DNA of 64,000 nt from Actinomycetes bacterium (GTDB lineage Bacteria > Actinomycetota > CALGFH01): NCBI GenBank assembly GCA_036003705.1, contig DASYSE010000121.1:530-64529 (forward strand). Reading direction: 5' to 3'. Each line of letters starts with the position of its first letter. Within the stretch, counting starts at the first letter, position 1. Position numbers and translations under genes: made by a program. Below the pieces are notes generated by a model. The model was given only the letters and a program-made list of their open reading frames with translations. It made no database searches and was not told the DNA's origin. This document shows positions 11,207-50,571 of the stretch, piece by piece.

Positions 11207-12643
11207 TCACAACTGCATGACCACGGCCTTGGCCTCGGTGAAGAACTCGCGGCTGTAGCTGCCGCCCTCGCGGCCGATGCCGGAGTCCTTGTAGCCCCCG
11301 AAGGGGGCCCGCAGGTCGCGGACGAAGAAGCAGTTGACCCAGATCGTGCCGGCCCGGATGGCGGCCGCGACCCGGTGGGCGCGGCGCAGGCTCTCGGTGA
11401 ACACCATGGCGTTGAGGCCGTAGGGCGAGTCGTTGGCCAGCCCCACCGCCTCCTCGTCGGTGTCGAAGCTCTGCACCACCACGACCGGGCCGAAGATCTC
11501 CTCCCGGCAGACAGCCATGTCCTGGCGGACGTCGACCAGCACCGTGGGCCGCACCCACCAGCCATCGCCCGGGCCGCCGCTGCGGACCTTGGCCCCCTCG
11601 GCGGCGGCCAGGTCGAGGTAGCCGGTCACCTTCCGCCAGTGCTCGAGCGACGACAACGGGCCGACCTCGGTCGCCTCGTCCAGCGGGTCGCCGAGCCGCA
11701 TCGCCTCGGCCCCGGCCACGAACCGGTCGAGGAACTCCTCGTACACCGGCCGTTGCACGTACAGCCGGGAGCCGGACAGGCAGACCTGCCCGGCGTTCAG
11801 GAAGATCGCCCGCAGCGACCAGTCGACCGCGTTGCCCAGGTCGGCGTCGGCGAAGACCAGGTTGGCGCCCTTGCCGCCGAGCTCGAAGCTGACCCGCTTG
11901 AGCGTCGGCGCGCCGGCGGCCAGGATCGCCCGCCCGGTGGCCGACTCCCCGGTGAAGGTGACCAGGTCGACCCGGGGGTGCTCGGTGAGGGCCTGCCCGG
12001 CCTCGCCGGGGCCGAACCCCTGCACCACGTTCAGCGTTCCCGGCGGCAGGCCTGCCGCGTTGGCCAGCAGGGCGAGCCGGTGGCAGGAGGCCGGCGCCTG
12101 CTCGGCCGGCTTGAGCACCACCGTGTTGCCGAACGCCAGGGCCGGCGCGACCTTCCAGCTGGCCAGCATGAGCGGGAAGTTCCAGGGCGAGATGGCCGCG
12201 GCCACCCCCACCGGCTCGTGCCTGGTGTAGACGTGATGGCCGGTCGGCGACGGCAGCGCCTCGTCGGCGGCCAGGGCGGCGTAGTCGGCGAAGAAGCGGA
12301 GGTTCAGGGCCGCCCGGTGGGCGTCGTTGTCGCGGGCCTGGCGGATCGGCTTGCCCATGTCGGTGGCGTCCATGCGCCCGAGGGCCTCGGCCTCGCCCTC
12401 GACCAGGTCGGCGAGCCGGTGCAGGGCCCGCCCGCGCTCGGCCGGGGACATCCGCGGCCAGGGGCCGTCGTCGAACGCCCGCCGGGCGGCGGCGACGGCC
12501 GCGCCGGCGTCGTCGGCCGACCCGCGCGCCACCCTGGCCCACGCCTGCCGGGTGGCCGGGTTGACCGACTCGAAGGTTCGGCCGTCGGCGGCCGGCCGCT
12601 CCTCCCCGTCGATCACGTGGGGGATCTCCACCAGCCTGCGCAT
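11207..12643 (-). CDS. NAD-dependent aldehyde dehydrogenase; by context 2-hydroxymuconic semialdehyde dehydrogenase
   Basis: ATG 12643 after GGAGG (MRRLVEIPHVIDGEE). Motifs ISPWNFPL, FTGESATG, ELGGKGANLVF, NAGQVCLSGSR, FGGYKDSGIGREGG. Confidence 0.9.
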   Translation of the reverse strand: MRRLVEIPHVIDGEERPAADGRTFESVNPATRQAWARVARGSADDAGAAVAAARRAFDDGPWPRMSPAERGRALHRLADLVEGEAEALGRMDATDMGKPIRQARDNDAHRAALNLRFFADYAALAADEALPSPTGHHVYTRHEPVGVAAAISPWNFPLMLASWKVAPALAFGNTVVLKPAEQAPASCHRLALLANAAGLPPGTLNVVQGFGPGEAGQALTEHPRVDLVTFTGESATGRAILAAGAPTLKRVSFELGGKGANLVFADADLGNAVDWSLRAIFLNAGQVCLSGSRLYVQRPVYEEFLDRFVAGAEAMRLGDPLDEATEVGPLSSLEHWRKVTGYLDLAAAEGAKVRSGGPGDGWWVRPTVLVDVRQDMAVCREEIFGPVVVVQSFDTDEEAVGLANDSPYGLNAMVFTESLRRAHRVAAAIRAGTIWVNCFFVRDLRAPFGGYKDSGIGREGGSYSREFFTEAKAVVMQL

Positions 12644-13299
12644 CACGTACCTCCGTTGCTCCCGGCCAGCCCGAGGGCCTGGCGGACCTTGACGTCGCTG
12701 TGCCGGGGCCGGGTGACGTCGAACCAGACGGCCTTCATGCCGGCCGCCTGCGCCCCGGCGGCGTTGGCCGGCTGGTCGTCGACGAACACGGCCTGGTCGG
12801 CGGCGACGCCGAGGCGGTCGAGGACCAGCCGGTAGGCTTCGGGGGCCGGCTTGCGGGTGCCGTGGCGCGAGGCGTCGACCACGCAGCCGACCTCGGCCAG
12901 GAACCCGATCTGGTCGATCCACGCCTGGTCGTGGAAGTCGTGCAGGTCGTTGCTGAGCACGGCCGTCAGCAGCCCGGCGCCGTGGGCGTCGGCCAGCAGC
13001 GCCCGAGCCAGCGGCCGGACCAGTTCGCCCTCCGGGCCGGTGTACAGCCGCCGCATCATTGCCCGCACGCCCGCCTCGCCCGAGACGGCCGCCACCTCGG
13101 CCGCCCGGCCGGCCCAGTAGTCGTGCTCGCTGACCTCTCCGGCCTGCAGCGAGCGCCACAGCGGGTCGGCGGCCTGGTCGAACGGGCCGTGCCAGTCGAA
13201 GGTCCCGGCCGGCACCCCGAGGGAGCCCTCCATCGCCCGGAGCCGCTCGAACGGGGTCAGCAGCACCGGGCCGCCGAAGTCGAGCACCAGCGCCTTCAC
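12643..13299 (-). CDS. HAD-IA-like hydrolase (DxGG variant)
   Basis: GTG 13299 overlaps the upstream stop (GTGA). Motifs LVLDFGGPVL, VLSND, FVDDQPANAAGAQAAGM. Its stop overlaps the ALDH ATG (TGATG). Confidence 0.7.
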   Translation of the reverse strand: MKALVLDFGGPVLLTPFERLRAMEGSLGVPAGTFDWHGPFDQAADPLWRSLQAGEVSEHDYWAGRAAEVAAVSGEAGVRAMMRRLYTGPEGELVRPLARALLADAHGAGLLTAVLSNDLHDFHDQAWIDQIGFLAEVGCVVDASRHGTRKPAPEAYRLVLDRLGVAADQAVFVDDQPANAAGAQAAGMKAVWFDVTRPRHSDVKVRQALGLAGSNGGT

Positions 13300-13703
13300 C
13301 CGGTCGCCTCGGGGCGGGTGGGCGCCGGCTGGCGGGCATGCTCGAGCAGGATCTCCCGCCACGAGCGGACCGGTGGCGCCGGCGGCGCCGTGACCCGCAC
13401 CTGGCCGTCGACCACCCGGACCGGGTAGCGGCGCAGCCGCAGCCCGGGCTGGCCGAGCCGCCGGCCGCTGCGGACGTCATAGCGCCACCAGTGCAGCGGG
13501 CAGACCAGCACCTCGCCGTCGAGGTGGCCGCAGGCCAGCGACCCGCCGCGGTGCAGGCAGGCGTCGTCGAGGGCGAACAGCCGGCCGCCGGCGTTGCCGA
13601 CGACCACCCGGCGTCCCGAGGCCAGCACCAGCCGCACCGACCCGGCCGGGAACTCCCCCACCGGTCCCGCGGGCACCTCGAGCGGCAGCGGCTGGGCGGT
13701 CAC
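13296..13703 (-). CDS. Rieske [2Fe-2S] ferredoxin-like protein
   Basis: GTG 13703 overlaps the 4-OT stop (GTGA). CLH-x16-CPLH Rieske ligand motif. Confidence 0.8.
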   Translation of the reverse strand: MTAQPLPLEVPAGPVGEFPAGSVRLVLASGRRVVVGNAGGRLFALDDACLHRGGSLACGHLDGEVLVCPLHWWRYDVRSGRRLGQPGLRLRRYPVRVVDGQVRVTAPPAPPVRSWREILLEHARQPAPTRPEATG

Positions 13704-13927
13704 TGGTCCAGCTCCCCGCCCTGGCCGGCGTCGACCGGGCCCCTGGCGACCGAGTACGGCACCCCGCCGATCCCCCACAGGTCGGGGTCGACCTCCGAGA
13801 CCAGCACGCGCACCCGGTCGATCGGCGTGTCGAGGGTCCGGGCGACGACCTGCGACACCTCCTCGACCAGCCGCATGAGCGTCGCCTTGTCACGGCCGCG
13901 GACGAGGTCGATGCGGACGAACGGCAT
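13700..13927 (-). CDS. 4-oxalocrotonate tautomerase family enzyme
   Basis: ATG 13927 after GAGGGAGG. N-terminal Met-Pro (MPFVRIDLVRGR) and ..WGIGG.. as in 4-OT. 75 aa. Confidence 0.8.
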   Translation of the reverse strand: MPFVRIDLVRGRDKATLMRLVEEVSQVVARTLDTPIDRVRVLVSEVDPDLWGIGGVPYSVARGPVDAGQGGELDQ

Positions 13928-13947
13928 GGGGCCTCCCTCTGGGCGCT

Positions 13948-14736
13948 TCAGCGGACGGGCAGCTCGACGGTTCCGAGCCGGCCAAGCCGGGCGACGACGA
14001 CGTCGCCAGGCCCGACCGGCAGGGCTTCGGTCAGCCCGCCGGAGAGCACCAGGTCGCCGGCGGCAAGGCCGCGGCCGCGGCGGGCCAGGGCGCGCACCAG
14101 CCAGGCGACGGCGGCGGCGGGATGGCCGAGCGCGGCCGCGCCGGCCGCGGTCGAGACAAGCCGGCCGTTGCGCTCCAGGGTGCAGCCGACCAGGCGCAGG
14201 TCGATGCCGTCGGCGGGACGGCGGACGCCGCCAAGGGCCAGGCGCGCGGCCGAGGAGTTGTCGGCGACCACGTCGGGCAGGGTGAACGTGTAGCCGGCGT
14301 AGCGGGAGTCGAGCACGTCGATCGCCGGCACCACGGCGGCGGTCGCCGCCAGCACCTGGGCGGCGCCGACCCGCGGCCCGGCCAGGTCGGCCCCGATGAC
14401 GAAGGCGATCTCCGGCTCGACCCTCGGCTGGATGAGGTCGCTGGTGTCGAGGGGCTGGCCGACGTCCAGCAGCATCCTGTCGGTCAGCTCGCCGTACAGC
14501 GGCTCGTCCACGCCCATCTGGGCCTGCTTGGCCCGGCTGGTGAGGCCGAGCTTGAAGCCGAGCGGATGCTCGCCCGCCGCCACCAGCAGCCGCACGCCGG
14601 CCTCCTGGACGGCGTAGGCGAGGTCGAGGTCGAGCCCGGGATGGTCGACCGTGAGGCCGTGGCCGGCGGTGCGGCTCAGCCGCAGCTCGGCCAGCCGCTG
14701 GGCCAGGGCCACGGGGTCGGCGGCGACCTGGCTCAT
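13948..14736 (-). CDS. 4-oxalocrotonate decarboxylase (assigned by dmpH-like position; hydratase/decarboxylase family)
   Basis: Track ORF of 262 aa. Motifs [28 protein letters not shown] overlap with the aldolase stop at 14733-14736. Confidence 0.75.
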
Positions 14737-15794
14737 GCCGGCCTTTCGGCCCGATGCGCCGGGGCACCCCTCCGCGGTTCCCGGGACCCGTCCGCCTGGC
14801 GGGCCAGGTCCAGGGCGACGTCGAGGATCATGTCCTCCTGGCCGCCGACGACCCGGCGATTCCCCAATTCGAGCAGGATCTCGCCGACGTCGACCCCGTA
14901 CCGGGCCGCCGCCCGCTGGGCGTGCAGCAGGAACGACCCGTACACCCCGGCGTAGCCGAGCAGCAGGCCGGCCCGGTCGATCACCCCCATCGCCGGCCGC
15001 AGGGGGCGGACCAGGTCCTCGGCCACGCCCATGGCGCGCAACGGGTCGACCCCGGTTGGCAGCCCGAGCTTGTCGCAGGTGGCCACCAGCACCTCGGTCG
15101 GGCAGTTGCCGGCGCCGGCGCCCAGGCCGGCGCAGCAGCCGTCGAGCTGGGCGGCGCCGACGTCCAGGGCGGCCAGCGAGTTGGCAACACCCAGCGAGAG
15201 GTTGTTGTGGGCGTGGTGGCCGACCTGGCAGCCGAGCCGCTCGGCCAGCAGGCCGACCCTGGCCCGGGCGTCGGCGGTGGTCATGGCCCCGGCCGAGTCG
15301 ACCACATAGACGCAGTCGGCGCCGTAGGACTCCATCAGCCGGGCCTGGGCGAGCAGCTGCTCCGGCTCGGCCATGTGCGCCATCATGAGGAAGCCGACCG
15401 CCTCCATGCCGAGCCGCTTGGCCAGGCGGAGGTGCTGCTCGGCGATGTCGGCCTCGGTGCAGTGGGTGGCGATCCGGGCCACCTGGACGCCGCGGTCGGC
15501 CATGTCGCGAAGGTCGTCGGCGACACCGATCCCCGGCAGCAGCAGCACCGCGATCCGGGCGGTGGTGGCGGCGGCCACGGCCGCCGACACCAGCTCGCGC
15601 TCGTCGGTCGCCGAGAAGCCGTAGTTGAACGACGAGCCGCCCAGCCCGTCGCCGTGGCTGACCTCGATGACCGGCACCCCGGCGGCGTCCAGGCCACCGA
15701 CGATGGTGCTGACCTGCTCGGCGGTGTACTGGTGGGACAGCGCGTGGGAGCCGTCACGCAGGGTCGAGTCGGTCAGCCGGAAGGCGGCGCTCAC
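14733..15794 (-). CDS. dmpG: 4-hydroxy-2-oxovalerate aldolase
   Basis: Track ORF of 353 aa. Motifs [43 protein letters not shown] overlap with dmpF. Confidence 0.9.
14761..14796. repeat. 36-bp GC-rich unit, copy A (GGGGCACCCC...)
   Basis: 30 of 36 positions identical to 15852..15887. Encodes the tail ..[11 protein letters not shown].. of dmpG. Confidence 0.7.
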
Positions 15795-16780
15795 GCCGGC
15801 ATCCCTCCCCCACCGTTTGGGGCACCCCGTCGGTGAGGGCCGCCCATCACCGGGGCACCCCGTCGGGGTTCCCCGGACCCCTCCGGCACCCTCGCCTCGG
15901 CGATGGCCTCGCCGACCCGCACCGCGGCCGCGGTCATGATGTCGAGGTTGCCGGCGTATGCGGGCAGGTGGTCGCCCGCGCCCTCGACCTCGAGCAGGAC
16001 CACCACCCTGGCCGCGGCCGGCCCGCCAGGGGTCCCGAACGGCCCCTCCTCGAACAACGGCGGGTTCTTCAGCCGGTAGCCGGGCACATACCGCGCGACC
16101 CGCTCGACCATGTCCCGGACGGCGGCGGCCACCGCCGCCTCGTCGTAGCCGTCGGGCAGGGCGCAGAACACGGTGTTGCGCATCAGGATGGGCGGCTCGG
16201 CCGGGTTGAGGATGATGATCGCCTTGCCGTGCCGCGCGCCGCCGACCTCCTCCAGGGAGCGGGCGGTCGTGCGGGTGAACTCGTCGATGTTCTGGCGGGT
16301 GCCCGGCCCGGCCGAGCGGGAGGCGACCGTGGAGACGATCTCCGCGTACGGCACCGGGCTGGCACCGGCGACGGCGGCCACGATCGGGGCGGTGGCCTGG
16401 CCGCCGCAGGTGATCAGGTTCAGGTTGGGGGCGTCCAGGTGGTCGCCGAGGTTGACCGAGGGCACCACCGGCGGCCCGAGCCTGGCCGGGGTCAGGTCGA
16501 CGGCGGTGATCCCGGCCTCCCGCAGCCGCGGGGCGTTGGCGGCATGGACCCTGGCGCTGGTCGCCTCGAAGGCCAGGTCGATCTCGGCGGCGTGCGCCTC
16601 GACCCAGTCGATGCCGTCGGCGGTCGCCTCAACGCCCAGGTCCCGGGCGCGGGCCAGTCCCTCGCTGCCCGGGTCGATGCCGACCAGGGCCCGCAGCCGC
16701 AGGCTCGGCGAGCGCAGCAGCTTGTGCAGCAGGTCGGTGCCGATGTTCCCGGACCCGATGACGACGCAGGACAGCGCCAC
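15791..16780 (-). CDS. dmpF: acetaldehyde dehydrogenase (acetylating)
   Basis: GTG start. Motifs [43 protein letters not shown]. Confidence 0.9.
15819..15887. repeat. GGGGCACCCCGTCGG twice (period 33 bp) plus the extended 36-bp unit, copy B
   Basis: 15-mer at 15819-15833 and 15852-15866. Encodes ..[24 protein letters not shown].. at the dmpF C-terminus. Confidence 0.75.
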
Positions 16781-16782
16781 GG

Positions 16783-17634
16783 TCAGCCCCTCCCACGGAC
16801 GACGACCAGCCCGACCGGCCCGAGCACGTCGAACTCGGCCCGGAACACGTCGCCGTCGGCCAGCGGCACCGAGGCGTGCAGGGCGCCGGTCATCACCACG
16901 TGCCCAGCCTGCAGGGTGGCCCCGAGCGGGTGCAGGGTGTTGGCCAGCCAGGCCACCGCATGGAGGGGGTCGCCGAGGGCGGCCGCGCCGGCGCCGGTGG
17001 CGACCAGCTCGCCGTTGCGGGTCAGGACCACCCCGACCAGCTTCGGGTCGAGCTGGTCCAGCGGGACCAGGCGGCTGGACAGCACGATATGGGCCGAAGA
17101 TGCGAGGTCGGCGATGGTGTCGGCGAGCCTGATGCGCCAGTCGGCCACCCGCGAGTCGATGATCTCGACCGCGGCCACGGCACCGGCCGCGGCCAGCCGG
17201 ACGTCGAGGGCGGTGCAGTTGGGCCCGGGCAGCGGCGCGCCGAGCACGATCGCGATCTCGGCCTCGACCTTCGGCTGGATCAGCCGGTCGAGATCGACCT
17301 GGACGCCGTCGGGGTGGACCCCGGCGGCCAGCACCGGGCCGTAGTCGGGCTGGTCGATGCCGAGCTGCTGCTGCATCGGGCGGCTGGTCAGGCCGAGCTT
17401 GTAGCCGACGATGTCGCCCTCACCGTCGGCCTGGAGCAGCTCGACCAGGCGGTGCTGGATGGCGTAGGCCTCGGCCGCGGTCAGCCCCGGCCGGGCCTCG
17501 GTCAGGGGCGGGACCGGGACGCGGTCGCGGCGGGCCTGATGCAGCGACCGGGCCAGCTCGTCGACCGGGAGGGCGGGCGCGACGCCTCCGGAGCCCCAGT
17601 CCACCGGCAGGCCGTCCGGTTCGGGCGCGGTCAT
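16783..17634 (-). CDS. 2-oxopent-4-enoate hydratase (assigned by dmpE-like position)
   Basis: ATG 17634 overlaps the IclR stop (ATGA). Motifs [24 protein letters not shown]. Confidence 0.8.
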
Positions 17635-18437
17635 GACGCTCCCCGCACCCGGCGGTCGGCTCGGTGGCCGAGCTGCTCGGAGATGGCGTCGGCGGCCTGG
17701 GTCACCGACGCCCGGAAGAAGCGGCGCAGGGTGTCGCCGTTGACCCGCATGATCGGCCCGGCCACGCTCACCGCGGCGATCACCTCGCCGCGGGCGTTGC
17801 GGATGGGGGCGGCGACGCTGGCCGCGCCGAGCTCGCTCTCGCCGATGTTCTCCGCCCACCCCTGCGCCCGGACCCGCTCCAGCTCGGCCCGGAGCTGGGG
17901 CAGCGCGCAGATGGTGGCGTCGGTCCTGCGTTCCGGCCGCCAGCGCACCAGCAGCGCCTGCAGGCGCGGCTCGGGCAGGGAGGCCAGCAGCACCTTGCCG
18001 GTGCTGGTGCAATGGGCCCAGTTGCGATGGCCGACCCGGGCGAAGATCCCCAGCGTGTGCGGGCTCTCGAGGCGTAGGACGTAGACCACCTCCCGGCCGT
18101 CGAGGACCGCCACCTGCACCGTCTCCTTGGTGGCGTTGCGCAGCTCCTCGATGACGGTGGTGGCGGCGTCGTGCAGCACCCGGTGCACCGAGACCCGGGC
18201 GCCCAGCTCCCACATCATCAGGCCGAGGCGGTAGGTGCCGGTGGCCGGGTCGTGCTCCAGGATCCGCTCGGCGGTCAGGGTGGCCAGCAGCCGGTGCACG
18301 GTCGACTTGCCCAGCCCGAGCCTTCTGGACAGCTCGGTGACGCCAAGGTCCCCGTCGGCGGTCCCGAACTCCTTCAACAGCCGGGCCGCGTTCTGGACCG
18401 AGGACAGCCGCGACCCGTCACGCCCCGGCCCGGTCAC
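17631..18437 (-). CDS. IclR-family transcriptional regulator
   Basis: GTG 18437 overlaps the upstream stop (GTGA). HTH LGVTELSRRLGLGKSTVHRLLATL; effector domain ..GHRNWAHCTSTGKVLLA.., ..GAASVAAPI... Confidence 0.85.
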   Translation of the reverse strand: MTGPGRDGSRLSSVQNAARLLKEFGTADGDLGVTELSRRLGLGKSTVHRLLATLTAERILEHDPATGTYRLGLMMWELGARVSVHRVLHDAATTVIEELRNATKETVQVAVLDGREVVYVLRLESPHTLGIFARVGHRNWAHCTSTGKVLLASLPEPRLQALLVRWRPERRTDATICALPQLRAELERVRAQGWAENIGESELGAASVAAPIRNARGEVIAAVSVAGPIMRVNGDTLRRFFRASVTQAADAISEQLGHRADRRVRGAS

Positions 18438-19135
18438 CTGCCCGCCCCTCGGAGGGCGCGCAGCAGGGCGGCGCGCAGCGCGGCCGGGTCGGTGGCCGCG
18501 GCCACGCCCTGGTCGCCGGGGGCGATCGCGCGGGCCAGCAGCGCCTGGGCGCGGACCAGCCCGGCGGTGGTCGCGCCGGCGAGCTCGTCGACCAGCGCCG
18601 CCTGGCCGGGCGCATGGGCCCGGATCGCCTCCAGGTCGCGGGCGGCGCCGGCGTGGGCGCTGGCCAGGCCGGTGCCGGCGTGGGTGGCGTGGTGCGGGGT
18701 CAGCTGGGAGCCGGGTTCGACCACCAGGTGGTACAGGTAGGTGCCGACCCCGAGCACACGGCGGACCTCGCCGGGGTCCGGCCCGTCGGCCTCGGCGACC
18801 AGGCCGAGCACCGGCAGCACCACCGGGTCGAAGAAGCGCAGCTCCCAGGCCAGCCCGTCGGCCTGCCCGGTCAGCTCGACCTCCTGGCCGACCGGGGCCG
18901 GGAACCGCTCTTCGGTCCCGATCACGTGCAGGTTGCGGGCACCGGCGGCGGCAACGGTGAGGTGCCGGGCCGACAGCAGCGGCATCCGGGCCTGCTCGGC
19001 CGGGGGCAGCAGGCGGGCCTGGGCCAGGTAGGCCTCGTGGACGGCGGCCACGAAGTCGGCCATCGCCTGGCGCATCTGCTCCGGACCGGCCGCCGGGGCG
19101 GCCGGTGGAGGGGGCGGAGGATCGGTCCGGCGCAT
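18434..19135 (-). CDS. hypothetical protein, first gene of the meta-pathway operon
   Basis: ATG 19135 (MRRTDPPPPPP..). High GC3. I recognise no motif. Start uncertain. Confidence 0.55.
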   Translation of the reverse strand: MRRTDPPPPPPAAPAAGPEQMRQAMADFVAAVHEAYLAQARLLPPAEQARMPLLSARHLTVAAAGARNLHVIGTEERFPAPVGQEVELTGQADGLAWELRFFDPVVLPVLGLVAEADGPDPGEVRRVLGVGTYLYHLVVEPGSQLTPHHATHAGTGLASAHAGAARDLEAIRAHAPGQAALVDELAGATTAGLVRAQALLARAIAPGDQGVAAATDPAALRAALLRALRGAGR

Positions 19136-19250: not shown

Positions 19251-20162
19251 ATGGGGATCCTCCGGCTGTCGCACGTGGACGTGCGGGTGCCCGACCTGGA
19301 CCTCGCCACCGCCTACTACACCGAGGTCATGGGCCTGCTCGAGGTCGAGCGGAACGCCACCGAGGTGTTCCTCAAGTGCTGGGACGAGACCGACCACCAC
19401 TCGGTGCGGCTCGGCTACGCGCCCCGGGTCGGTCTGGACCTGATCAGCTTCAAGGTCGAGCAGGACGAGGACCTGGCCGTGCTCGAGTCCCGGGTGGAGG
19501 CCTACGGCCTGCCGGTGCGCCGGGTCTCCCGCGGCGAGGCCGTCGGCCAGGGCGAGTCGATCCGCTTCGAGACGCCATCGGGCCAGCTGATGGAGCTGGT
19601 CCGCGAGGTCGAGCGGGTCGGCGGGCTGCTGCCCAAGGTGAACCCGCCGCCGTTCCCGCCCCAGGGCCTGCGCGGCATCGCCCCGCCCCGGATCGACCAT
19701 GTGCTGGTCACCGCCGAGGAGGTCGGCGAGGCGACCCGCTTCTACATGGAGGTGCTGGGGTTCCGGCTGACCGAGCAGCTGCTGGACGGCAATGGCCACC
19801 AGATCGGCGTCTGGATGGAGCGCTCGCACTCCCCCCACGACCTGGCCGTGGTCACCGGGCCCAACGGCGGGCTGCACCATTTCGCGTTCTGGCTGGACGA
19901 CTGGGACCACGTCCGCAAGGCGGCCGACATCCTGGCCTACAACGGCGTCCAGATCGACGTCGGCCCGACCCGCCACGGGATCACCCGCGGCAACACCATC
20001 TACTTCTTCGATCCGCTGGGGACCCGCAACGAGGTCTTCACCGGCGGCTACCGGCCCGACCCGGACTTCCCCACCATCACCTGGACCGAGGACAACATCG
20101 GCCGGGCGATCTTCTACTACGAGGGCGACCTGAACGAACGGTTCATGAAGGTCCACACCTGA
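19251..20162 (+). CDS. catechol 2,3-dioxygenase (two-domain type I extradiol dioxygenase), copy 1
   Basis: ATG 19251 after GGAAGGAG. Motifs LSHVDVRVPDL, RIDHVLV, GGLHHFAFWLDDW, GNTIYFFDPLGTRNE. 303 aa. Confidence 0.9.
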   Translation: MGILRLSHVDVRVPDLDLATAYYTEVMGLLEVERNATEVFLKCWDETDHHSVRLGYAPRVGLDLISFKVEQDEDLAVLESRVEAYGLPVRRVSRGEAVGQGESIRFETPSGQLMELVREVERVGGLLPKVNPPPFPPQGLRGIAPPRIDHVLVTAEEVGEATRFYMEVLGFRLTEQLLDGNGHQIGVWMERSHSPHDLAVVTGPNGGLHHFAFWLDDWDHVRKAADILAYNGVQIDVGPTRHGITRGNTIYFFDPLGTRNEVFTGGYRPDPDFPTITWTEDNIGRAIFYYEGDLNERFMKVHT

Positions 20163-21073
20163 TGGGCATCCTGCGCCTGTCCCACGTCGAGGTCCGGGTC
20201 CCCGACCTGGAGCTGGCCACCGCCTACTACACCGAGGTGCTGGGGCTGCTGGAGACGGGCCGGGAGCCGGAGCGGGTGTTCCTCAAATGCTGGGACGAGC
20301 ACGAGCACCACTCGGTGATCCTGCGCTACGCCGCCACCTACGGGCTGGAGCACATGGGCTTCAAGGTCGAGCACGCCGACGATCTCGCCACCTACGAGCG
20401 GGCGGTCGAGCAGGACGGCGGCCGGGTGACCCGCCACGCCCGCGGCGAGCTGGCCCCTGGGCACGGCGAGGCGATCCGCTTCCAGACCCCGACCGGGCAC
20501 CGCTGCGAGCTGGTCTGGGGGATGGAGAAGGTCGGCAACCTGCTCCCCCGCACCAACCCGCCGCCCCGGCCGATGGGGCTGGTCGGGATCTCGCCGCCGC
20601 GGCTGGACCACATCTTCGTCACCGCCGAGGACGTCGACGAGGGCACCAGGTTCTTCCGCGACGTCCTCGGGTTCCGGCTGACCGAGCAGATCCTGGCCGA
20701 CGACGGGCACCGGCTGGCCAGCTGGCTGGAGGTGTCGCACACCCCCCACGACATCGCCCTGGTCACCGGGCCCAACGGCGGGCTGCACCATTTCGCGTTC
20801 TGGCTGGACGACTGGAACGACGTGCGCGACGCCGCCGACCTCCTCGCCTACCACGGGGTCCCCATCGACGCCGGCCCGACCCGCCACGGCGCCACCCGCG
20901 GCTACGCCGTCTACTTCTTCGACGCCGCCGGCAACCGCAACGAGGTGTTCACCGGCGGCTACTGGGTCGACCCCGACCACGAACCGGTCACCTGGACCGA
21001 GGCCGAGATGGGCCGAGCCATCTTCTACTACGAAGGCGCCGTCAACCAGCGGTTCCTGACCGTGCACAGCTGA
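20162..21073 (+). CDS. catechol 2,3-dioxygenase, copy 2 (tandem paralog)
   Basis: ATG 20162 shares one base with the copy 1 stop (TGATG). Same length (303 aa) and the same motifs as copy 1. Confidence 0.9.
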   Translation: MGILRLSHVEVRVPDLELATAYYTEVLGLLETGREPERVFLKCWDEHEHHSVILRYAATYGLEHMGFKVEHADDLATYERAVEQDGGRVTRHARGELAPGHGEAIRFQTPTGHRCELVWGMEKVGNLLPRTNPPPRPMGLVGISPPRLDHIFVTAEDVDEGTRFFRDVLGFRLTEQILADDGHRLASWLEVSHTPHDIALVTGPNGGLHHFAFWLDDWNDVRDAADLLAYHGVPIDAGPTRHGATRGYAVYFFDAAGNRNEVFTGGYWVDPDHEPVTWTEAEMGRAIFYYEGAVNQRFLTVHS

Positions 21074-21373
21074 GCCGACCGAAGGGCGGTGGGGCGAGGT
21101 GGCCGAGGACCCGTCGCGCGAGCGCGACCGGCAGGCGCTGCCCCGCACCGAGCGTCCCGACGCGCCGCTGTACCTGGCCAGCTATCTGCGGCGGCGTGCA
21201 AGGACGACCCCCGAGGCGGAAGAGGACGCCGACGCCACCACCCCGCTGTACCTGCGCCGGTTCCGGGAGCGGCGGGCCGACCGGACGCCCCGGACGCGCC
21301 GCCGCCGGTCTGGAACGGCGAACCGCTGGAGGTCACCCGGGCCTGGGCCGAGATCACCCGAACCAAGGAGATC

Positions 21374-22159
21374 GTGCCACCGACGGCCGGCAGCTACCGG
21401 GTCGCCGCCCAGATCCACATCATCCGGCACGGCGAGACCCAGGGGTACTCCACCGAGAGCGGCCTGACCCCGCTCGGCGGCTGGCAGGCGCACCGGCGCG
21501 GGTTCGACCTGTCCAAGGGCATCCGCGACGGCGAACAGGTCCGGATCGTCTGCGCCGACACCAACCGGGCCCGCCAGACGGCCGAGCACCTCCACCGCGG
21601 CCTGCTGGACGGCCTGGACATGTGGCGGCGCGACGCCAAGGTGACCGAGCCCCGGCCGATGGCGGAGTTCCGCAACTTCCAGGTGGCCACCCCGGCAGGC
21701 CTGCGCGACGTGACCAGCGCGTTCCGGATGTACCACGCGCTGATGGAGGGCTTCGAGCGGGTCGCCCTCGGGGACCGCCCGATGTGGCTGGTCGAGCTGG
21801 ACCGTTTCTGGAACGTCCAGCAGGGCGGCGCCGACCCCATCCACCACTGGATGACCATCCCGATGCTGCATTTCGAGCCGCCGGCCAGCTGCGTGCGCCG
21901 GTTCTGGGCCGGGTTCCAGCGGCTGGTCGACGAGGCGCCGGGCGTGCGCATCCTGTGCGCCACCCACTCCGGCCCGATCCGCGCGTTCGCCGCCTGGGCG
22001 GTCGGCTACGACCCGGGCGAGCCCTACAACACCGAGGAAGTGGTGGTGAAGCTGAAGGAGGGCGCCGGCGAGGCCCTGGTCGCCTACCGTAACCGGGTGC
22101 AGGAGGTGCAGGTCCCGCCGACGGCCGGCCTGCCCGACTGGTGGGAGGGGATCCCATGA
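21374..22159 (+). CDS. histidine phosphatase (phosphoglycerate mutase-like) family protein
   Basis: GTG 21374 after AAGGAG. RHGETQGY catalytic motif near the N-terminus, ..CATHSGPIRAF... The upstream part of track ORF 21089.. has poor GC3. Start uncertain. Confidence 0.65.
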   Translation: MPPTAGSYRVAAQIHIIRHGETQGYSTESGLTPLGGWQAHRRGFDLSKGIRDGEQVRIVCADTNRARQTAEHLHRGLLDGLDMWRRDAKVTEPRPMAEFRNFQVATPAGLRDVTSAFRMYHALMEGFERVALGDRPMWLVELDRFWNVQQGGADPIHHWMTIPMLHFEPPASCVRRFWAGFQRLVDEAPGVRILCATHSGPIRAFAAWAVGYDPGEPYNTEEVVVKLKEGAGEALVAYRNRVQEVQVPPTAGLPDWWEGIP

Positions 22160-23242
22160 GCTTCGTGCGCTGGCTCGACGCCTACGACCCGGCCGAGCGG
22201 GACCGGCTGGGCGGCAAGAACGCCGGCCTCGGCGAGCTGCTGGCCGCCGGGCTGCCGGTGCCGCCCGGGTTCGCGGTCACCGTCGACGCTACCACACGGT
22301 CCGCGAGCACGCCGAGGTCCGGCGGGTGGTCGGGGGGCTGCTCGGTGAGGTCGACCTCGCCGACCCGGCCGCGATGGAGGAGCTCAGCGCCGCCATCCGC
22401 GGCTGCATCGAGCAGGTCCCGCTGCACGACGGCGTCGCCAGGGAGGTCCGCGCCGCCTACGACGCCCTGTGCGAGCGCTGCGCCAGCCAGGCGGTGCCGG
22501 TGGCGGTTCGTTCCTCGGCCACCTCCGAGGACCTGCCCGACGCCAGCTTCGCCGGTGAGCACGACACCTTCCTGTGGGTGCGCGGCCCCGACGACGTCCT
22601 GGCCTACCTGACCCGCTGCTGGTCCAGCCTGTTCACCGCCCGTGCGATCGCCTACCGACGCGAGCGGGGCTACGCCCACGACGTGGTCGCCATGTCGGTC
22701 GGGGTGCAGAAGATGGTCCGCCCCAAGGCGTCCGGGGTGGCGTTCACCCTCAACCCCAGCGACGGCGACCGCTCCCAGGTGGCGGTCGAGGCGGCCTGGG
22801 GGTTCGGCGAGGGCGTCGTCTCGGGCGAGGTGACCCCCGACAGCTTCCTGGTCGACAAGGTCCTGGGCGAGATCGTCAAGCGCACCATCGCCGACAAGTC
22901 CATGGAGTATCGGCTGGGCCCGGGCGACCGGGTGGAGCTGGTGGCGGTGGACGACGCCCGGCGCGCCGCCCCGTCCCTGACCGACGACCAGGTCAAGGCG
23001 GTGGCGCGGCTGGCCCGGCGGGCCGAGCGGCATTACGGCTGCCCCCAGGACGTGGAGTGGGCGTCGACGCCGACCTGCCCGAGGAGTCGGCCGTGACCCT
23101 GCTCCAGGCCCGCCCGGAGACGGTCTGGAGCCGCCGGCCGGCCAAGCCCGTGGCCAGGACCCATGACCCGATGGCCAGCATCGTCGCCACCCTGCTGTCG
23201 CCGCTGCACGCACGTGGACGCTCGGACCCGCCCGGGCCGTGA
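22156..23242 (+). pseudogene. PEP synthase N-terminal (ATP-grasp, PEP/pyruvate-binding family) subunit, PpsB-like, with two -1 frame breaks
   Basis: ATGA overlap with the phosphatase stop. Three consecutive frames carry GGKNAGLGELLAAGLPVPPGFAVT | YHTVREH..VRSSATSEDLPDASFAGEHDTF..QDVEWA | VDADLPEESAVTLLQARPETVW. Breaks lie at about 22289/22290 and 23062/23063. Confidence 0.75.
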
Positions 23243-23269
23243 CCCGGGCTCGACGGAAAGGACAGGGCC

Positions 23270-25084
23270 ATGGCGGACCGGTTCCCGAGCCCCTTCGGGC
23301 TCGAGACCCCGGCGGGGGCCGAGGGGTGGCAGGAGCTGTACACCTACTCGCTGCCGTTCAGCTCCGACCGGCGCGAGTACGAGGACTCGATGTTCTGGTT
23401 CCAGGACGGGGTCCACTGGCCGGAGGTCCTGAGCCCCTGGGACGCCACCTTCCTGGAGTTCGCGCTGGCCTCGCTGTCGCAGTACAACACCCGCCACTAC
23501 CTGATCCCGCCGGCCCTTGGGGTCGACTTCCGGGTGCTCAACGGCTACGTGTTCCTCTCCCCGGTCGGGGTGGCCGACCCGGCCGAGATCGAGGCCAGGG
23601 TCCCCCATTTCCTGGAGCGGGCCGGCTTCTACTTCCAGAACTGGGGGTCGCTGTACGAGCAGTGGATGGTCAAGATCCGCGGGCTGATCGACGAGATGGA
23701 GGCGCTCCGCTTCGAGCCCCTGCCCGACAAGGAGGACCTGGCCGTCGTCACCGAGGGCCGCGGCGTCGGCTCCGGCTTCGAGCTGCAGCGGCAGTACCAC
23801 CGGCTGGTCGACCTGGCCCTGCAGCTGTGGCAGTACCACTTCGAGTTCCTCAACCTCGGCTACGCCGCCTACCTGGACTTCTTCGGCTTCTGCAAGCAGG
23901 CCTTCCCCAGCATCCCCGACCTGGCCATCGCCAAGATGGTCGCCGGGGTCGAGGTCGACCTGTTCCAGCCCGACGAGGAGCTGAAGAAGCTGGCCCGCCT
24001 GGCCGTCGACTCCCGCGTCGACGGCGCCTTCGGGCAGACCTCGGCCGCGGAGGTGATGGAGGCCCTGCGGGGCAGCGACGGCGGCCAGGCATGGCTGGCC
24101 CAGTGGGAGGCGTCGGCGCAGCCGTGGTTCAACTTCTCCTCGGGCAGCGGCTTCTACCACACCGACGAGGTGTGGCTGGAGCACCTGGAGATCCCGTTCG
24201 GGTTCGTGCGCGACTACATCGCCAAGCTGCGGACCGGGGCCGACATCAGCCGGCCGATCGAGGCCATCCGGGCCGAGCGCGACCGGATCGTGGCCGAGTA
24301 CGGCGAGCTGCTGGCCACCGACGAGGACCGGGCCGCCTTCGAGCAGAAGCTCGGCCTGGCCCGGGTGGTGTTCCCCTACGTCGAGAACCACAACTTCTAC
24401 GTCGAGCACTGGAGCCACTCGGTGCTGTGGCGCAAGATGCGCCAGCTCGGCGGCGTCCTGGCCAAGGAGGGCTTCTTCGGCGGCGAGGACGACATCTTCC
24501 TGCTCAAGCGGGACGAGGTGCCGGAGGCGCTGTGGGACTACTACAGCGCCTGGGCGGTCGGGGTGGCACCACGGGGGCCGCGCTACTGGGGCAGGGAGCT
24601 TGAGCGCCGCCGCGGCATCCTGGCCGCGCTGCGGTCCTGGTCGCCGCCGCCGGCCCTTGGCCGCCCGCCCGAGGTCGTCACCGAGCCGTTCACCATCATG
24701 CTCTGGGGGATCACCGGCGAGAGCGTCAAGCAGTGGCTCGGCTCCTCCGACGCCGCGGGCGACGGCGGCCTCAGGGGCTTCGCCGCCTCCCCCGGCGTGG
24801 CCGAGGGCCCGGCCAGGGTGATCTTCTCGGCCGACCAGATCGGCGAGGTGCAGGAGGGCGAGATCCTGGTCGCCCCCCTCACCGCCCCGAGCTGGGCGCC
24901 GATCTTCGGCAAGATCGGCGCCACCGTCACCGACGTCGGCGGGATGATGGCCCATGCGGCCATCGTCTGCCGCGAGTACGGGCTGCCCGCCGTGACCGGC
25001 ACGGCCTTCGGGACCAAGACCATCAAGACCGGCCAGCGCATCCGCGTGGACGGCAACCAGGGCACCGTCACCATCCTGGAGTGA
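23270..25084 (+). CDS. PEP-utilizing enzyme with C-terminal mobile phosphohistidine domain, PpsA-like
   Basis: Track ORF of 604 aa. The C-terminal ~110 aa (GVAEGPARVI..GEILVAPLTAPSWAPIFGKIGATVTDVGGMMAHAAIVCREYGLPAV) look like a swivel His domain. I do not recognise the N-terminal ~480 aa. Confidence 0.8.
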   Translation: MADRFPSPFGLETPAGAEGWQELYTYSLPFSSDRREYEDSMFWFQDGVHWPEVLSPWDATFLEFALASLSQYNTRHYLIPPALGVDFRVLNGYVFLSPVGVADPAEIEARVPHFLERAGFYFQNWGSLYEQWMVKIRGLIDEMEALRFEPLPDKEDLAVVTEGRGVGSGFELQRQYHRLVDLALQLWQYHFEFLNLGYAAYLDFFGFCKQAFPSIPDLAIAKMVAGVEVDLFQPDEELKKLARLAVDSRVDGAFGQTSAAEVMEALRGSDGGQAWLAQWEASAQPWFNFSSGSGFYHTDEVWLEHLEIPFGFVRDYIAKLRTGADISRPIEAIRAERDRIVAEYGELLATDEDRAAFEQKLGLARVVFPYVENHNFYVEHWSHSVLWRKMRQLGGVLAKEGFFGGEDDIFLLKRDEVPEALWDYYSAWAVGVAPRGPRYWGRELERRRGILAALRSWSPPPALGRPPEVVTEPFTIMLWGITGESVKQWLGSSDAAGDGGLRGFAASPGVAEGPARVIFSADQIGEVQEGEILVAPLTAPSWAPIFGKIGATVTDVGGMMAHAAIVCREYGLPAVTGTAFGTKTIKTGQRIRVDGNQGTVTILE

Positions 25085-25100
25085 GACAAGGGGAGGCCGC

Positions 25101-26366
25101 ATGCTGACCGCCGAACAGAACGCCGAGCTCACCCGGGTCGGGCCGGGGAGGCCAATGGGCGAGCTCCTGCGCCGCTACTGGTACCCGGTCGCGTTCACCC
25201 GCCAGCTCGACCAGTTCCCGGTCAGGCGGGTGCGGCTGCTCGGCGAGGACTGGGCCCTCTACCGGAGCTCGGACGGCGCCTACGGGGTGGTCGAGGAGCA
25301 CTGCCCGCACCGGCGGGCGTCCCTGGCCTACGGGGTGGTCGAGGCCGACGGGATCCGCTGCGGCTACCACGGCTGGCTGTTCGGCCGCGACGGGACCTGC
25401 CTGGACCAGCCGGCCGAGATGGACAAGACCTCCTTCAAGAACCGGGTCAGGGCCAGGGCCGGGCGGGCCGAGGAGCTGGGCGGCATGGTCTGGGTGTATG
25501 TGGGCCCGGAGCCGGCGCCGCTGCTGCCCCGCTACGACGTGTACGTGATGGACGGGGTGCGTGACTTCGGCCATGCGCTGCTGCCCTGCAACTGGCTGCA
25601 GATCATGGAGAACGCGGTCGACCCGCACCATGTCGAGTGGCTGCACGGCCGCTACTTCGAGTTCCTCGGCAACCGGCTCGGGTTCGAAGCCCCCAAGTCG
25701 TTCCAGCGCCGGCACGTCAAGGTCGCCTTCGACGAGTTCGAGCACGGCATCATCAAACGCCGGCTGCTGGAGGGGCACACCGAGGCCGACGACGACTGGG
25801 CGATCGGGCACCCGCTGGTGTTCCCCTACTGCATGCGGGTCGGCGGCGCCGGCATCGACCAGATGCAGATCCGGGTCCCGGTCGACGACACCACCACCTG
25901 GTTCGTGCTGTACACGGTGCACGCGCCGGAGGGGGCCGGGGTCGAGCCGCAGCAGGCGATCCCCGACTACCAGCTGCCCTGGCGCGACGAGCAGGGCAAC
26001 CACATCGTGGACTACGTGGAGGGCCAGGACATCATGGCCTGGGTCACCCAGGGCCCGATCACCGACCGGACGGTCGAGCACCTGGGCAAGTCCGACGTCG
26101 GCATCGCCATGCTCCGCAAGCAGTTCAAGCAGCAGCTGGCGGCGGTGGCCGCCGGCCGCGACCCGATCGCGGTGGTGCGCGACCCCGCCGCCAACCGGCG
26201 CATCGACCTGCCCTGCGAGAAGAACAAGTTCGGGGCCGGTGCCGACTTCGCCCTCCAGTGGATGAACCTCGGCTTCACCCGCTACTCGCCGCAGCTCAAG
26301 GACCTGCTGCGCCTGCACACCGACGCAGCCGCGGCCCGGGCCGCGGCGGTCGGGGCCGATGTCTAG
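25101..26366 (+). CDS. Rieske non-heme iron oxygenase alpha subunit, phthalate-dioxygenase-like family
   Basis: ATG after GGGGAGG. N-terminal LTRVGPGRPMGELLRRYWYPV; Rieske CPHRRASL..CGYHGW; iron site-like NAVDPHHVEWLH. Confidence 0.85.
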   Translation: MLTAEQNAELTRVGPGRPMGELLRRYWYPVAFTRQLDQFPVRRVRLLGEDWALYRSSDGAYGVVEEHCPHRRASLAYGVVEADGIRCGYHGWLFGRDGTCLDQPAEMDKTSFKNRVRARAGRAEELGGMVWVYVGPEPAPLLPRYDVYVMDGVRDFGHALLPCNWLQIMENAVDPHHVEWLHGRYFEFLGNRLGFEAPKSFQRRHVKVAFDEFEHGIIKRRLLEGHTEADDDWAIGHPLVFPYCMRVGGAGIDQMQIRVPVDDTTTWFVLYTVHAPEGAGVEPQQAIPDYQLPWRDEQGNHIVDYVEGQDIMAWVTQGPITDRTVEHLGKSDVGIAMLRKQFKQQLAAVAAGRDPIAVVRDPAANRRIDLPCEKNKFGAGADFALQWMNLGFTRYSPQLKDLLRLHTDAAAARAAAVGADV

Positions 26367-26604
26367 CGTGCCGGCCGCCCCGCCGGCCGGGCCGTCGTGG
26401 TTCGCCGGCGACGCCGAGCGTCACCTGCTCGACGCTCCGAGGCACTGCCCGCACTGCGGCGGGCCGATCGGCGGGCGGGCCGGTCTGGTGGTGGAGTACT
26501 GGGTGGCCGACGACCGCGTCTTCTACTGCTGGTGCCAGGCGTGCGACTGGACCGGGACCGTCATCCAGGTCGAGCGCCACGTCGGCCACGAGGCGGCCGG
26601 GTAG
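26359..26604 (+). CDS. small Cys-rich (zinc-ribbon-like) protein
   Basis: Track ORF of 81 aa. Its ATG overlaps the oxygenase end by 8 nt. CPHC ... CWCQAC. Confidence 0.5.
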   Translation: MSSVPAAPPAGPSWFAGDAERHLLDAPRHCPHCGGPIGGRAGLVVEYWVADDRVFYCWCQACDWTGTVIQVERHVGHEAAG

Positions 26605-31110: not shown

Positions 31111-31186
31111 GGCCCGAGCCTCCCTTGGAACGCCGCTGGGGCGGCGCGCACGTGACCGCATGTCCAGAGGGCGTTTACCCCCCTTG

Positions 31187-31300
31187 GGCGCGCCCCCAAA
31201 CCGTCGGAGCGAACCGTCACCCACGCACGCCCGGTCCGGCGGCGGCGCGCCCCCAACCCGTCGGAGCGAACCGTCTCCCAGGCACGCCCGGGCGGGCGGC
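31187..31300. repeat. 57-bp tandem repeat x2 in an intergenic region
   Basis: GGCGCGCCCCCAAMCCGTCGGAGCGAACCGTC... at 31187-31243 and 31244-31300. Starts 2 nt from the stop of the 31303 gene. Confidence 0.9.
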
Positions 31301-41974: not shown

Positions 41975-42102
41975 GCAGGGCAGTGTAGGCCCAAGGAGAG
42001 GATCAGCCGTCGAGGGTGGCCCGCACCAGGTCGCGGAACTCCTCTACGGCTTCGGGCGGCCTCGGGCGGGACCGGCCGGAGGCCTGGCCGACCAAGGGTG
42101 TC

Positions 42103-42504: not shown

Positions 42505-42656
42505 CAGACGCGTGGCGGTGTCGGCGATGGTGCCCTCCGGAACCGACGAATGGCTCGATCCACCATTGACAATCCCTCATACCTTAGCACGTTACTGAGC
42601 CGCGCCCCGTGACGTCCGGCTCGGCGCCGGGTCGAGGAAGGAAGGCTCAGGCGGGG

Positions 42657-43723: not shown

Positions 43724-43733
43724 GAACTCGACG

Positions 43734-44537: not shown

Positions 44538-44539
44538 GG

Positions 44540-45403: not shown

Positions 45404-45407
45404 CGCG

Positions 45408-50553: not shown

Positions 50554-50571
50554 ACAAGACAGGGGGCGCTC

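Follow-up and report, generated by a model that had tools for sequence, protein, structure and literature searches.

Aerobic phenol catabolism that begins with phosphorylation is known from few systems, namely those acting on cresol, hydroxyphenylethanones and perhaps 3-hydroxypyridine. The 4-cresol route of Corynebacterium glutamicum, in which CreHI, CreJEF, CreG, CreC and CreD take part, is said to have been laid out by Du et al. in the Journal of Biological Chemistry in 2016. Here we describe a locus in a 64,000-nucleotide (nt) stretch of an Actinomycetes bacterium genome (GenBank assembly GCA_036003705.1, contig DASYSE010000121.1, positions 530 to 64,529 of the forward strand; this whole stretch is called the window below), where two catechol 2,3-dioxygenase genes are followed by genes for a histidine phosphatase, a split phosphoenolpyruvate (PEP)-synthase-like kinase, a Rieske oxygenase and a cysteine-rich mini-protein. 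We propose that the locus is an aerobic module by which a phenolic compound would be phosphorylated and then converted to catechol for extradiol (meta) cleavage, a reading on which we find the balance of evidence even. The cluster is probably an undescribed variant of the known phosphorylate-oxidize-dephosphorylate phenol routes. An earlier reading made from the letters alone (the sequence-only reading) had taken the whole scheme of phosphorylation, oxygenation and dephosphorylation to be new; that claim falls, because the CreHI/CreJ/CreD route for 4-cresol is known and HpeHI/AcvAB and the 3-hydroxypyridine dikinase are further aerobic precedents.

A subfamily of two-component phenolic dikinases, aerobic members among them, has been described (PMC12167813, PMC9618137). 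In the cre pathway, CreHI starts aerobic 4-cresol catabolism, the P450 CreJ oxidizes the aryl phosphate and CreD dephosphorylates it (PMC12167813, PMC9549646). The window resembles this pathway in being aerobic, in its two-subunit dikinase, in its gene order (the ATP-grasp subunit, then a subunit of ~600 amino acids (aa)) and in the phosphorylate-oxidize-dephosphorylate logic. The cre oxidizer, however, is a P450 that works with a ferredoxin and a reductase on the methyl group, its phosphatase is an HD-domain protein and its product is 4-hydroxybenzoate, whereas the window has a Rieske oxygenase, a zinc-ribbon protein, a histidine phosphatase, two dioxygenases and a meta pathway, and neither a P450 nor an HD hydrolase. 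By tblastn with queries from the cre cluster of Rhodococcus oxybenzonivorans pRB98, no CreJ-like P450 or CreD-like HD hydrolase was found in the window or at 80 related loci (the best of at least 574 relatives of the large kinase subunit in a one-genome-per-species scan, 68–97% identical and taken with 10-kb flanks), and membership in the cre type was therefore rejected.

The Hpe system of Rhodococcus rhodochrous GD02 (HpeHI-HpeCBA-HpeD) and the Acv system of Sphingobium sp. SYK-6 (AcvAB-AcvCDE-AcvF) also use a two-component phenolic dikinase, and the large subunit HpeH resembles rifampin phosphotransferase (RPH). HpeHI and AcvAB start acetovanillone catabolism, after which the phosphate ester is carboxylated and then cleaved by a HAD phosphatase (PMC12167813, PMC9618137). 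A HAD-superfamily phosphatase acts later in both systems (that of Hpe, HpeD, is NagD-like), and the window cluster has a HAD gene too; but in Hpe and Acv a biotin enzyme carboxylates the phosphorylated intermediate and no oxygenase takes part. We rejected membership in this type because no carboxylase domains occur among the neighbors in the window or at the related loci. The PpsABC and phenylphosphate carboxylase (Pps/Ppc) system of Thauera aromatica, Aromatoleum and Geobacter shares the two-subunit His-swivel dikinase layout, and the sequence-only reading was right that the pair copies the layout of phenylphosphate synthase, with PPDK_N and PEP-utilizers on separate genes. The substrate of PpsABC, simple phenol, is the minimal substrate that would fit the window cluster, the likeness being one of layout. 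Pps/Ppc differs in that it is anaerobic, carboxylates phenylphosphate with release of phosphate and has neither an oxygenase nor a ring-cleavage dioxygenase; since the neighbors in the window are oxygen-dependent Rieske and extradiol enzymes, membership in this anaerobic type was rejected as well. In Ensifer adhaerens HP1, ring hydroxylation of 3-hydroxypyridine by the dehydrogenase HpdA genetically requires a two-gene PEP-utilizing/pyruvate phosphate dikinase (PPDK) pair, which is therefore a precedent for kinase-coupled hydroxylation, although HpdA depends on molybdenum and no phosphorylated intermediate has ever been seen. Full-text searching, with incomplete coverage, found no literature on a route joining a dikinase, a Rieske oxygenase and a catechol 2,3-dioxygenase. 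So far as we found, a Rieske oxygenase with a histidine phosphatase and a zinc-ribbon protein that feeds meta-cleavage without a conventional phenol hydroxylase thus appears to be undescribed.

Gene order and conservation of the cluster

The window is of actinobacterial character, with a G+C content of ~72%. Our gene map, made from codon-position G+C analysis and a simple gene caller, places two tandem catechol 2,3-dioxygenase genes ahead of five co-directional genes on the + strand, just as the sequence-only reading had it:

19251..20162, + strand: catechol 2,3-dioxygenase copy 1, 303 aa (TIGR03211; Glyoxalase and Diox-like_N domains)
20162..21073, + strand: catechol 2,3-dioxygenase copy 2, 303 aa (TIGR03211)
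21099..22159, + strand: histidine-phosphatase-superfamily protein, 353 aa if repaired (His_Phos_1)
22156..23242, + strand: ATP-grasp subunit, CreI/HpeI/PpsB-like, 362 aa if repaired (PPDK_N, 281 bits, in the middle frame)
23270..25084, + strand: substrate-binding and swivel-His subunit, CreH/HpeH/PpsA-like, 604 aa, intact (PEP-utilizers at 528–598)
25101..26366, + strand: single-subunit Rieske non-heme-iron oxygenase, 421 aa, intact (Rieske, LigXa_C, VanA_C)
26359..26604, + strand: zinc-ribbon mini-protein, 81 aa (four conserved Cys)

The genes are closely packed. The start of dioxygenase copy 2 overlaps the stop of copy 1 (TGATG), and the GTG start of the phosphatase gene at 21099 lies 25 nt past the dioxygenase stop. 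The further junctions are exactly those reported before: ATGA at 22156–22159 between the phosphatase and ATP-grasp genes, a 27-nt gap (23243–23269) carrying GGAAAGGA between the ATP-grasp and 604-aa genes, a 16-nt gap (25085–25100) carrying AAGGGGAGG between the 604-aa and Rieske genes, both gaps holding purine-rich Shine-Dalgarno-like stretches, and an 8-nt overlap (26359–26366) of the Rieske and mini-protein genes. Pfam upholds the previous domain calls for the phosphatase (His_Phos_1), the PEP-synthase-like pair (PPDK_N; PEP-utilizers with the motif GGMMAHAAIVCREYGLPAV), the phthalate-family Rieske protein (Rieske with LigXa_C/VanA_C) and the 81-aa Cys-rich open reading frame (ORF).

Two of the genes are interrupted in the window's copy. 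For comparison we used a metagenome relative (L001, ~88% nt identity) and the closest genome found (L003, 97% nt identity). The ATP-grasp gene spans three frames (22156–22288, 22290–23063 and 23064–23242), and relative to both references the window is one base short at 22289 and one at 23064, in stretches that are well conserved apart from this. Restoring these bases gives a 362-aa ATP-grasp protein, so that the length of about 362 aa claimed earlier stands after repair of the two deletions and does not stand for a single ORF, no intact one being present in the window. The phosphatase gene, too, has lost a single base, at 21281, so that its first 61 codons are read in a different frame from the rest. 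The start at 21374 given by the sequence-only reading and the long ORF 21089–22159 were both rejected, since the true N-terminus lies in a different frame and begins at the GTG at 21099; homologues of 345–390 aa cover this repaired N-terminus, in which Pfam gave no hits.

The cluster is real and conserved across many Actinomycetota. Of 8,000 candidates scored against the 604-aa protein, more than 4,300 are related to it at E ≤ 1e-10, the best 120 with 72–92% identity. Neighbors at the 80 loci were counted by tblastn with the window proteins, the denominators being the loci with sufficient flank. The ATP-grasp gene lies directly upstream of the 604-aa gene in 76 of 77 genomes, the Rieske gene directly downstream of it in 69 of 70, and the mini-protein gene follows the Rieske gene in 68 of 69. 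Both dioxygenase genes are adjacent in 47 of 66 genomes. All seven genes, the two dioxygenases included, stand in the window's order in 42 of 59 species-level genomes, an arrangement far beyond chance, and this neighborhood check bears out the five genes as a co-conserved set. An IclR gene is present in 47 of 48 genomes with enough flank, a gene for a 213-aa protein in 38 of 48 and a HAD hydrolase gene in 36 of 48, and lower meta-cleavage genes flank the module in most related loci. Carriers come from the Actinomycetes and Acidimicrobiia, among them Nocardioides, Micromonospora, Blastococcus, Kineosporia, Pseudonocardia, Streptosporangiaceae, Nanopelagicales and sponge-associated lineages.

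Variants of the layout also occur. In an alternative one, HAD and tautomerase genes and then IclR stand ahead of the kinase, Rieske and mini-protein genes, and the phosphatase gene stays with dioxygenase copy 2 elsewhere; indeed, it adjoins copy 2 even where the kinase genes lie apart (L038, L043, L046, L051 and L059), and in look-ups from the phosphatase side every sampled context was the same cluster. Second dikinase pairs, whose large subunits are 27–29% identical, were found at L056 (14241–18559) and in Pseudonocardia bannensis (L002, 2785–7339), and each adjoins its own Rieske gene and a shorter mini-protein gene. The P. bannensis pair is only 27% identical and carries a Pfam Rph_4th domain; beside it lie its own Rieske gene (LigXa_C), a 64-aa mini-protein gene and adjacent HAD and short-chain dehydrogenase/reductase (SDR) genes. 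These look like a paralogous module for another substrate, and the P. bannensis module suggests that dikinase, Rieske enzyme, mini-protein and phosphatase function together as one unit. Alongside the second kinase pair of L044, a Rieske gene was sought and not found; SDR and TrmO-like genes lie there instead. At L084, on a 2.2-Mb contig, a PEP carboxylase gene (907 aa; 15777–18500) stands between the mini-protein and HAD genes.

The kinase pair, the oxygenase and the catechol branch

In the kinase pair, the ATP-grasp and swivel modules lie on separate adjacent genes, as in two-component phenolic dikinases (~360–390 and 590–610 aa). The large subunit has the swivel motif GGMMAHAAIV; its catalytic His562 of 604 stands in GGMMAHAAIVCREYG, within ~50 residues of the C-terminus, and G557, G558, H562, A563, A564, I565 and V566 are invariant in the large-subunit alignment. 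Measured against the proteins of the pRB98 cre cluster, it shares 55% identity with the CreH-like subunit over 601 aa (full length), and the ATP-grasp subunit shares 49% identity with the CreI-like one. The pRB98 cluster comprises genes for IclR, a P450, ATP-grasp and PEP-utilizing proteins, an SDR, a ferredoxin, a reductase, an HD hydrolase and an aldehyde dehydrogenase. Once repaired, the ATP-grasp subunit matches the HpeI crystal structure (PDB 9GOJ) at E 7.5e-74. By sequence, only the swivel domain of the large subunit (~500–604, ~100 aa) matches PEP synthase, PPDK, enzyme I and RPH; Pfam has no hits in residues 1–500, no PEP/pyruvate-binding domain is present, and NCBIfam places the protein in the unnamed PRK08296 family (PRK08296.1-2, 853 bits). 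In Foldseek searches with an AlphaFold model of the large subunit (mean predicted local distance difference test (pLDDT) score 58), 463–604 columns align with RPH at E 1e-10, and RPH alone gave significant matches of more than ~150 columns. HpeH was likewise reported to be RPH-like by Dexter et al. (PMC12167813). RPH shares ATP-grasp, helical substrate-binding and swivel-His modules with the window enzyme, but it is a single chain of ~865 aa with ~18% identity that confers antibiotic resistance, whereas the window enzyme is split and lies in a catabolic operon. Given the split genes, the Cre-like identity, the HpeI match, the RPH-like model and the invariant His, we assign the pair to the two-component phenolic dikinases, among which it would form its own orthologue group beside the Cre type.

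The Rieske protein is a member of the single-subunit phthalate/VanA/LigXa family. Among solved structures it comes closest to phthalate 4,5-dioxygenase 7FJL (E 1e-48), 7FHR being matched as well, and NCBIfam matches it to 4-beta-methylsterol mono-oxygenase (78 bits). With phthalate 4,5-dioxygenase PDO-KF1 (7FJL/7V25) and with VanA/LigXa, whose substrates are anionic aromatics, it has in common a single subunit with a Rieske center and a mononuclear iron. The Rieske CPH...CGYH and mononuclear-iron ENAVDPHHVEWLH motifs (DPHHVEWLH) are at least 97% conserved in 71 orthologues. A Lys-Arg-Arg cluster (K219-R220-R221), also at least 97% conserved, aligns with Arg231 of phthalate dioxygenase, a pocket residue in an enzyme that binds a dianionic substrate; this would fit an anionic ligand, though it proves nothing. 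From the conserved motifs and the reductase genes of related loci, we judge the oxygenase to be a working redox enzyme. Such a reductase gene, of the VanB/PDR type, follows the HAD gene in 12 Nocardioides/Micromonospora/Blastococcus-type loci (the one listed here and L042, L049, L053, L057, L062, L070, L071, L075, L076, L079 and L081), and these loci thus share a class IA-type VanB/PDR reductase partner with the VanA and phthalate systems:

14094–15026 of locus L060: VanB/PDR-type reductase, ~311 aa (FNR-like and plant-type 2Fe-2S)

The window has no VanB/PDR-type reductase gene; in its lineage the divergent operon encodes a Rieske-type ferredoxin instead. In the Nanopelagicales locus L085 a Pyr_redox_2 reductase gene follows the HAD gene.

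The mini-protein has four conserved Cys (CPxC...WCxxC) together with conserved DAERH and GHE motifs, and its AlphaFold2 model (pLDDT 79.6) consists of one helix and a three-stranded zinc ribbon. A fold search returned generic zinc-ribbon analogies only (NrdR, Rpp21, RNA polymerase subunits), none with E <0.001, and no informative structural or family match was obtained. In an exhaustive profile search we found 175 representative clusters, all of small proteins. We know of no phthalate/VanA/LigXa-type system with a zinc-ribbon partner protein.

The phosphatase scores 50 bits with His_Phos_1, and its RHGE and THSG motifs (the RHG nucleophile and the second catalytic His) are at least 97% conserved in 57 orthologues. 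Both dioxygenases pass the TIGR03211 cut-off of 320.2 (copy 1, 375 bits; copy 2, 372 bits). Across the related loci, copy 1 is typically 71–81% and copy 2 typically 68–77% identical to the window protein, and the tandem is, as judged by these identities, an old conserved pair without recent duplication, which suggests distinct substrates or a hetero-oligomer. A multicomponent phenol hydroxylase alpha subunit was found neither in the window nor within 10 kb at the 80 loci, flavin-type hydroxylases not having been queried in the loci. Divergent from the dioxygenases lie the following genes, assigned by Pfam:

11207..17634, − strand: lower meta-cleavage operon
11207–12646, − strand: 2-hydroxymuconic semialdehyde dehydrogenase-type Aldedh, in the lower meta operon
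12643–13299, − strand: HAD hydrolase, in the lower meta operon
13296–13703, − strand: Rieske-type ferredoxin, in the lower meta operon
17631–18437, − strand: IclR-family regulator, divergent from the dioxygenases
18434–19075, − strand: conserved 213-aa protein, divergent from the dioxygenases, no Pfam domain

The lower operon also has genes for a hydratase, the DmpF acetaldehyde dehydrogenase, the DmpG aldolase, 4-oxalocrotonate decarboxylase and the tautomerase, and every step from catechol downward is predicted to be encoded by the cluster. The 213-aa protein is Ala/Leu-rich and co-transcribed with IclR; in the loci carrying it, its gene always lies between the regulator and the dioxygenases.

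Proposed pathway and competing explanations

We propose the following pathway. The dikinase would pass the β-phosphate of ATP by way of the swivel His562 onto the hydroxyl group of the phenol, so that an aryl phosphate, AMP and Pi are formed; for this step we rely on the documented kinase family and, as to the substrate, on analogy with PpsAB and HpeHI. Probable substrates are phenol itself, an alkylphenol or a methoxyphenol, for example guaiacol. The Rieske oxygenase would then act on the anionic aryl phosphate, with electrons from the Rieske-type ferredoxin of the divergent operon, or from the VanB/PDR-type reductase in Nocardioides-type clusters, and the zinc-ribbon mini-protein would be its obligatory partner. 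The product would be catechol monophosphate, formed by hydroxylation ortho to the ester or by O-demethylation of an ortho methoxy group. From this, the histidine phosphatase may free catechol, possibly with a contribution of the HAD hydrolase, a role that fits the constant linkage of the phosphatase gene to the ring-cleavage gene. Finally, the two catechol 2,3-dioxygenases, whose family is clear, and a complete 4-oxalocrotonate branch would lead to pyruvate and acetyl-CoA.

Several observations count against this scheme. The phthalate-binding residues of 7FJL are replaced in the window protein (Arg244 by Ile, Ser179 by Pro, Ser182 by Val), which sets it apart from phthalate dioxygenase, and Arg207 of the latter falls in an unaligned insertion; we therefore transferred nothing about the ligand, and an identity as phthalate dioxygenase was rejected because the substrate-binding residues are not conserved. 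Confidence in the model of the large kinase subunit is limited (mean pLDDT 58). The locus carries two phosphatases (His_Phos_1 and HAD) where the scheme needs one, and the histidine phosphatase gene adjoins the kinase genes in 50 of 73 genomes and lies within 10 kb of them in 56 of 73. It is from gene context, moreover, that we infer the substrate, what the phosphatase acts on and which reaction the Rieske enzyme carries out (mono-oxygenation, O-demethylation or dioxygenation). Loss of phosphate without a phosphatase is conceivable: The Rieske enzyme could be a true dioxygenase at C1 and C2 of the aryl phosphate, in which case the geminal hydroxy-phosphate would lose phosphate spontaneously to give catechol, the point of phosphorylation would be to install a leaving group, and the phosphatases would be left with subsidiary tasks, for example proofreading or recycling. 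Rieske dioxygenases are well known to catalyze ipso-dioxygenation that expels a leaving group, the closest solved relatives (7FJL and 7FHR) are cis-dihydroxylating phthalate dioxygenases, and the loci without a histidine phosphatase gene beside the kinase genes also favor this idea. We nevertheless regard it as improbable: Conservation of the phosphatase extends to its catalytic residues, and its gene stays linked to that for ring cleavage; the HAD hydrolase is there too in 36 of 48 loci, and two phosphatases would not be expected to be kept if none were needed; and the C-terminal domain of the oxygenase also matches O-demethylase and mono-oxygenase types (LigXa_C, VanA_C). Quite improbable, in our view, is a cre-like side-chain route, in which the Rieske enzyme would take the place of the P450 CreJ on an alkyl or other side chain and the dioxygenases would act on a later intermediate. 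The nearest relative of a characterized type that we found for the kinase is indeed the CreH-like subunit, and Rieske mono-oxygenases of this family do oxidize methyl groups, as the 4-beta-methylsterol mono-oxygenase match illustrates; but the module lacks any conserved alcohol dehydrogenase or counterpart of CreC/CreG, the sole aldehyde dehydrogenase gene sits among the meta-pathway genes, and such a route would yield a hydroxybenzoate, which is not a substrate of catechol 2,3-dioxygenase, whereas the genes most tightly linked to the module are the two TIGR03211 catechol 2,3-dioxygenases. That the kinase pair and the Rieske gene are unrelated neighbors, the pair being an ordinary PEP synthase or an antibiotic phosphotransferase, we find very hard to credit. 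The database names of the homologues ("pyruvate, water dikinase," "PEP-utilizing enzyme") do suggest it, but PEP synthase is matched by the swivel domain only, there is no PEP/pyruvate-binding domain, the architecture is that of two genes with 55% identity to the CreH-like subunit, and the Rieske gene adjoins in 69 of 70 genomes across Actinomycetes and Acidimicrobiia. With NCBIfam equivalogs far below their cut-offs, an ordinary PEP synthase, PPDK or single-chain RPH was rejected, and the pair lies outside these families as the sequence-only reading had supposed.

The frame breaks raise a different doubt, namely that the module in this genome is a dead remnant, with a phosphatase lacking its N-terminus, the ATP-grasp subunit not made and no kinase activity. 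Three uncompensated single-base deletions fall in two adjacent genes, all inside a span of 1.8 kb. Four of the five single-base deletions relative to L003, the intergenic one at 23249 included (the other intergenic one is at 19242), lie within ~2 kb, and a nearby gene has two more breaks:

29657–31224, − strand: split solute-binding-protein gene of the downstream ATP-binding cassette (ABC) transporter, with breaks near 30350 and 30535

In its product, Pfam finds a twin-arginine translocation (TAT) signal and SBP_bac_1 profile positions 3–80, 119–174 and 185–302 in three different frames. A further break is possible near 35589, in a gene at 35381–36230 (−) where the coding signal shifts frame without a stop or start, and no frame breaks were seen in 1–19 kb or 37–64 kb of the window. 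This clustering is unlike evenly spread errors and fits real inactivation better. On the other side, the ratio of nonsynonymous to synonymous substitution rates (dN/dS) against L003 is 0.11 and 0.24 for the repaired genes, within the range of intact neighbors (0.07–0.38); G+C at third codon positions exceeds 0.9 in every fragment of the broken genes, with codon bias undiminished; at each of the five sites where a single base differs from L003 the window has lost a G or C, and two of these sites are intergenic, a pattern typical of long-read consensus errors; and both genes are intact in every relative examined (88–97% nt identity for the close ones). Because dN/dS and codon bias are normal and all the differences are G/C deletions, the three deletions are more likely due to errors in assembly or sequencing, or to very recent damage, than to decay over a long time, and we hold a dead remnant to be unlikely, though a doubt to be taken seriously. 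In a long-read metagenome-assembled genome, L018 (MFD00731.bin.3.52), the ATP-grasp and phosphatase genes likewise give split tblastn hits, a hint that assembly can introduce false frame breaks into this G+C-rich cluster.

The aerobic module proposed here, if true, would add a fourth post-phosphorylation chemistry, Rieske oxygenation to catechol followed by meta-cleavage, and would represent a new and widespread high-affinity way into the meta pathway; Rieske oxygenases would thereby gain a new class of substrate. We tentatively suggest, as somewhat less than an even prospect, that many Actinomycetota make catechol in this way: through an aryl phosphate formed with ATP, a Rieske "aryl-phosphate oxygenase" with a zinc-ribbon partner and a histidine phosphatase, and without a classical phenol hydroxylase. 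Carriers of the module come from soil, freshwater (Nanopelagicales) and sponges (sponge-associated Acidimicrobiia), and relatives are present in hundreds of species-level genomes, mostly of uncultured soil and water Actinomycetota; the cluster could therefore explain phenol or guaiacol turnover missed by surveys of phenol hydroxylase genes. The reason for the cost in ATP is debated, and scavenging at submicromolar Km has been proposed (PMC12167813). As several cultured carriers exist, among them Nocardioides sp. PD653-B2 (L060), Micromonospora globispora S2901 (L042), Blastococcus jejuensis JCM 15614 (L057) and P. bannensis (L002), our hypothesis is directly testable. The cluster also offers a defined test case for a zinc-ribbon partner of a Rieske oxygenase, and potential new parts for bioconversion of lignin aromatics.

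The wider window

Downstream, the ABC transporter operon converges on the module. Promoter and terminator scans and a search for inverted repeats in the two flanking intergenic regions gave nothing above background, and Rfam and tRNA scans of the whole window found no RNA family and no tRNA. The gene at 32502–34166 (+) encodes a 554-aa protein with Pyr_redox_2 from residue 230 and no Pfam match in its N-terminal 230 residues; this could be a ferredoxin reductase for the Rieske ferredoxin, and it occurs near the module in only one related locus (L059). Further on, a gene at 36264–37469 (GTP_cyclohydro2 and RibD_C) begins at profile position 43 of its first domain. The region 42000–59300 has a lower G+C content (66–70%) and holds an ABC transporter and many hydrolase and oxidase genes, among them isochorismatase, enolase-superfamily, octopine dehydrogenase-like, DAO and creatinase/prolidase genes and three amidohydrolase genes; it resembles a distinct island for the breakdown of nitrogenous compounds.

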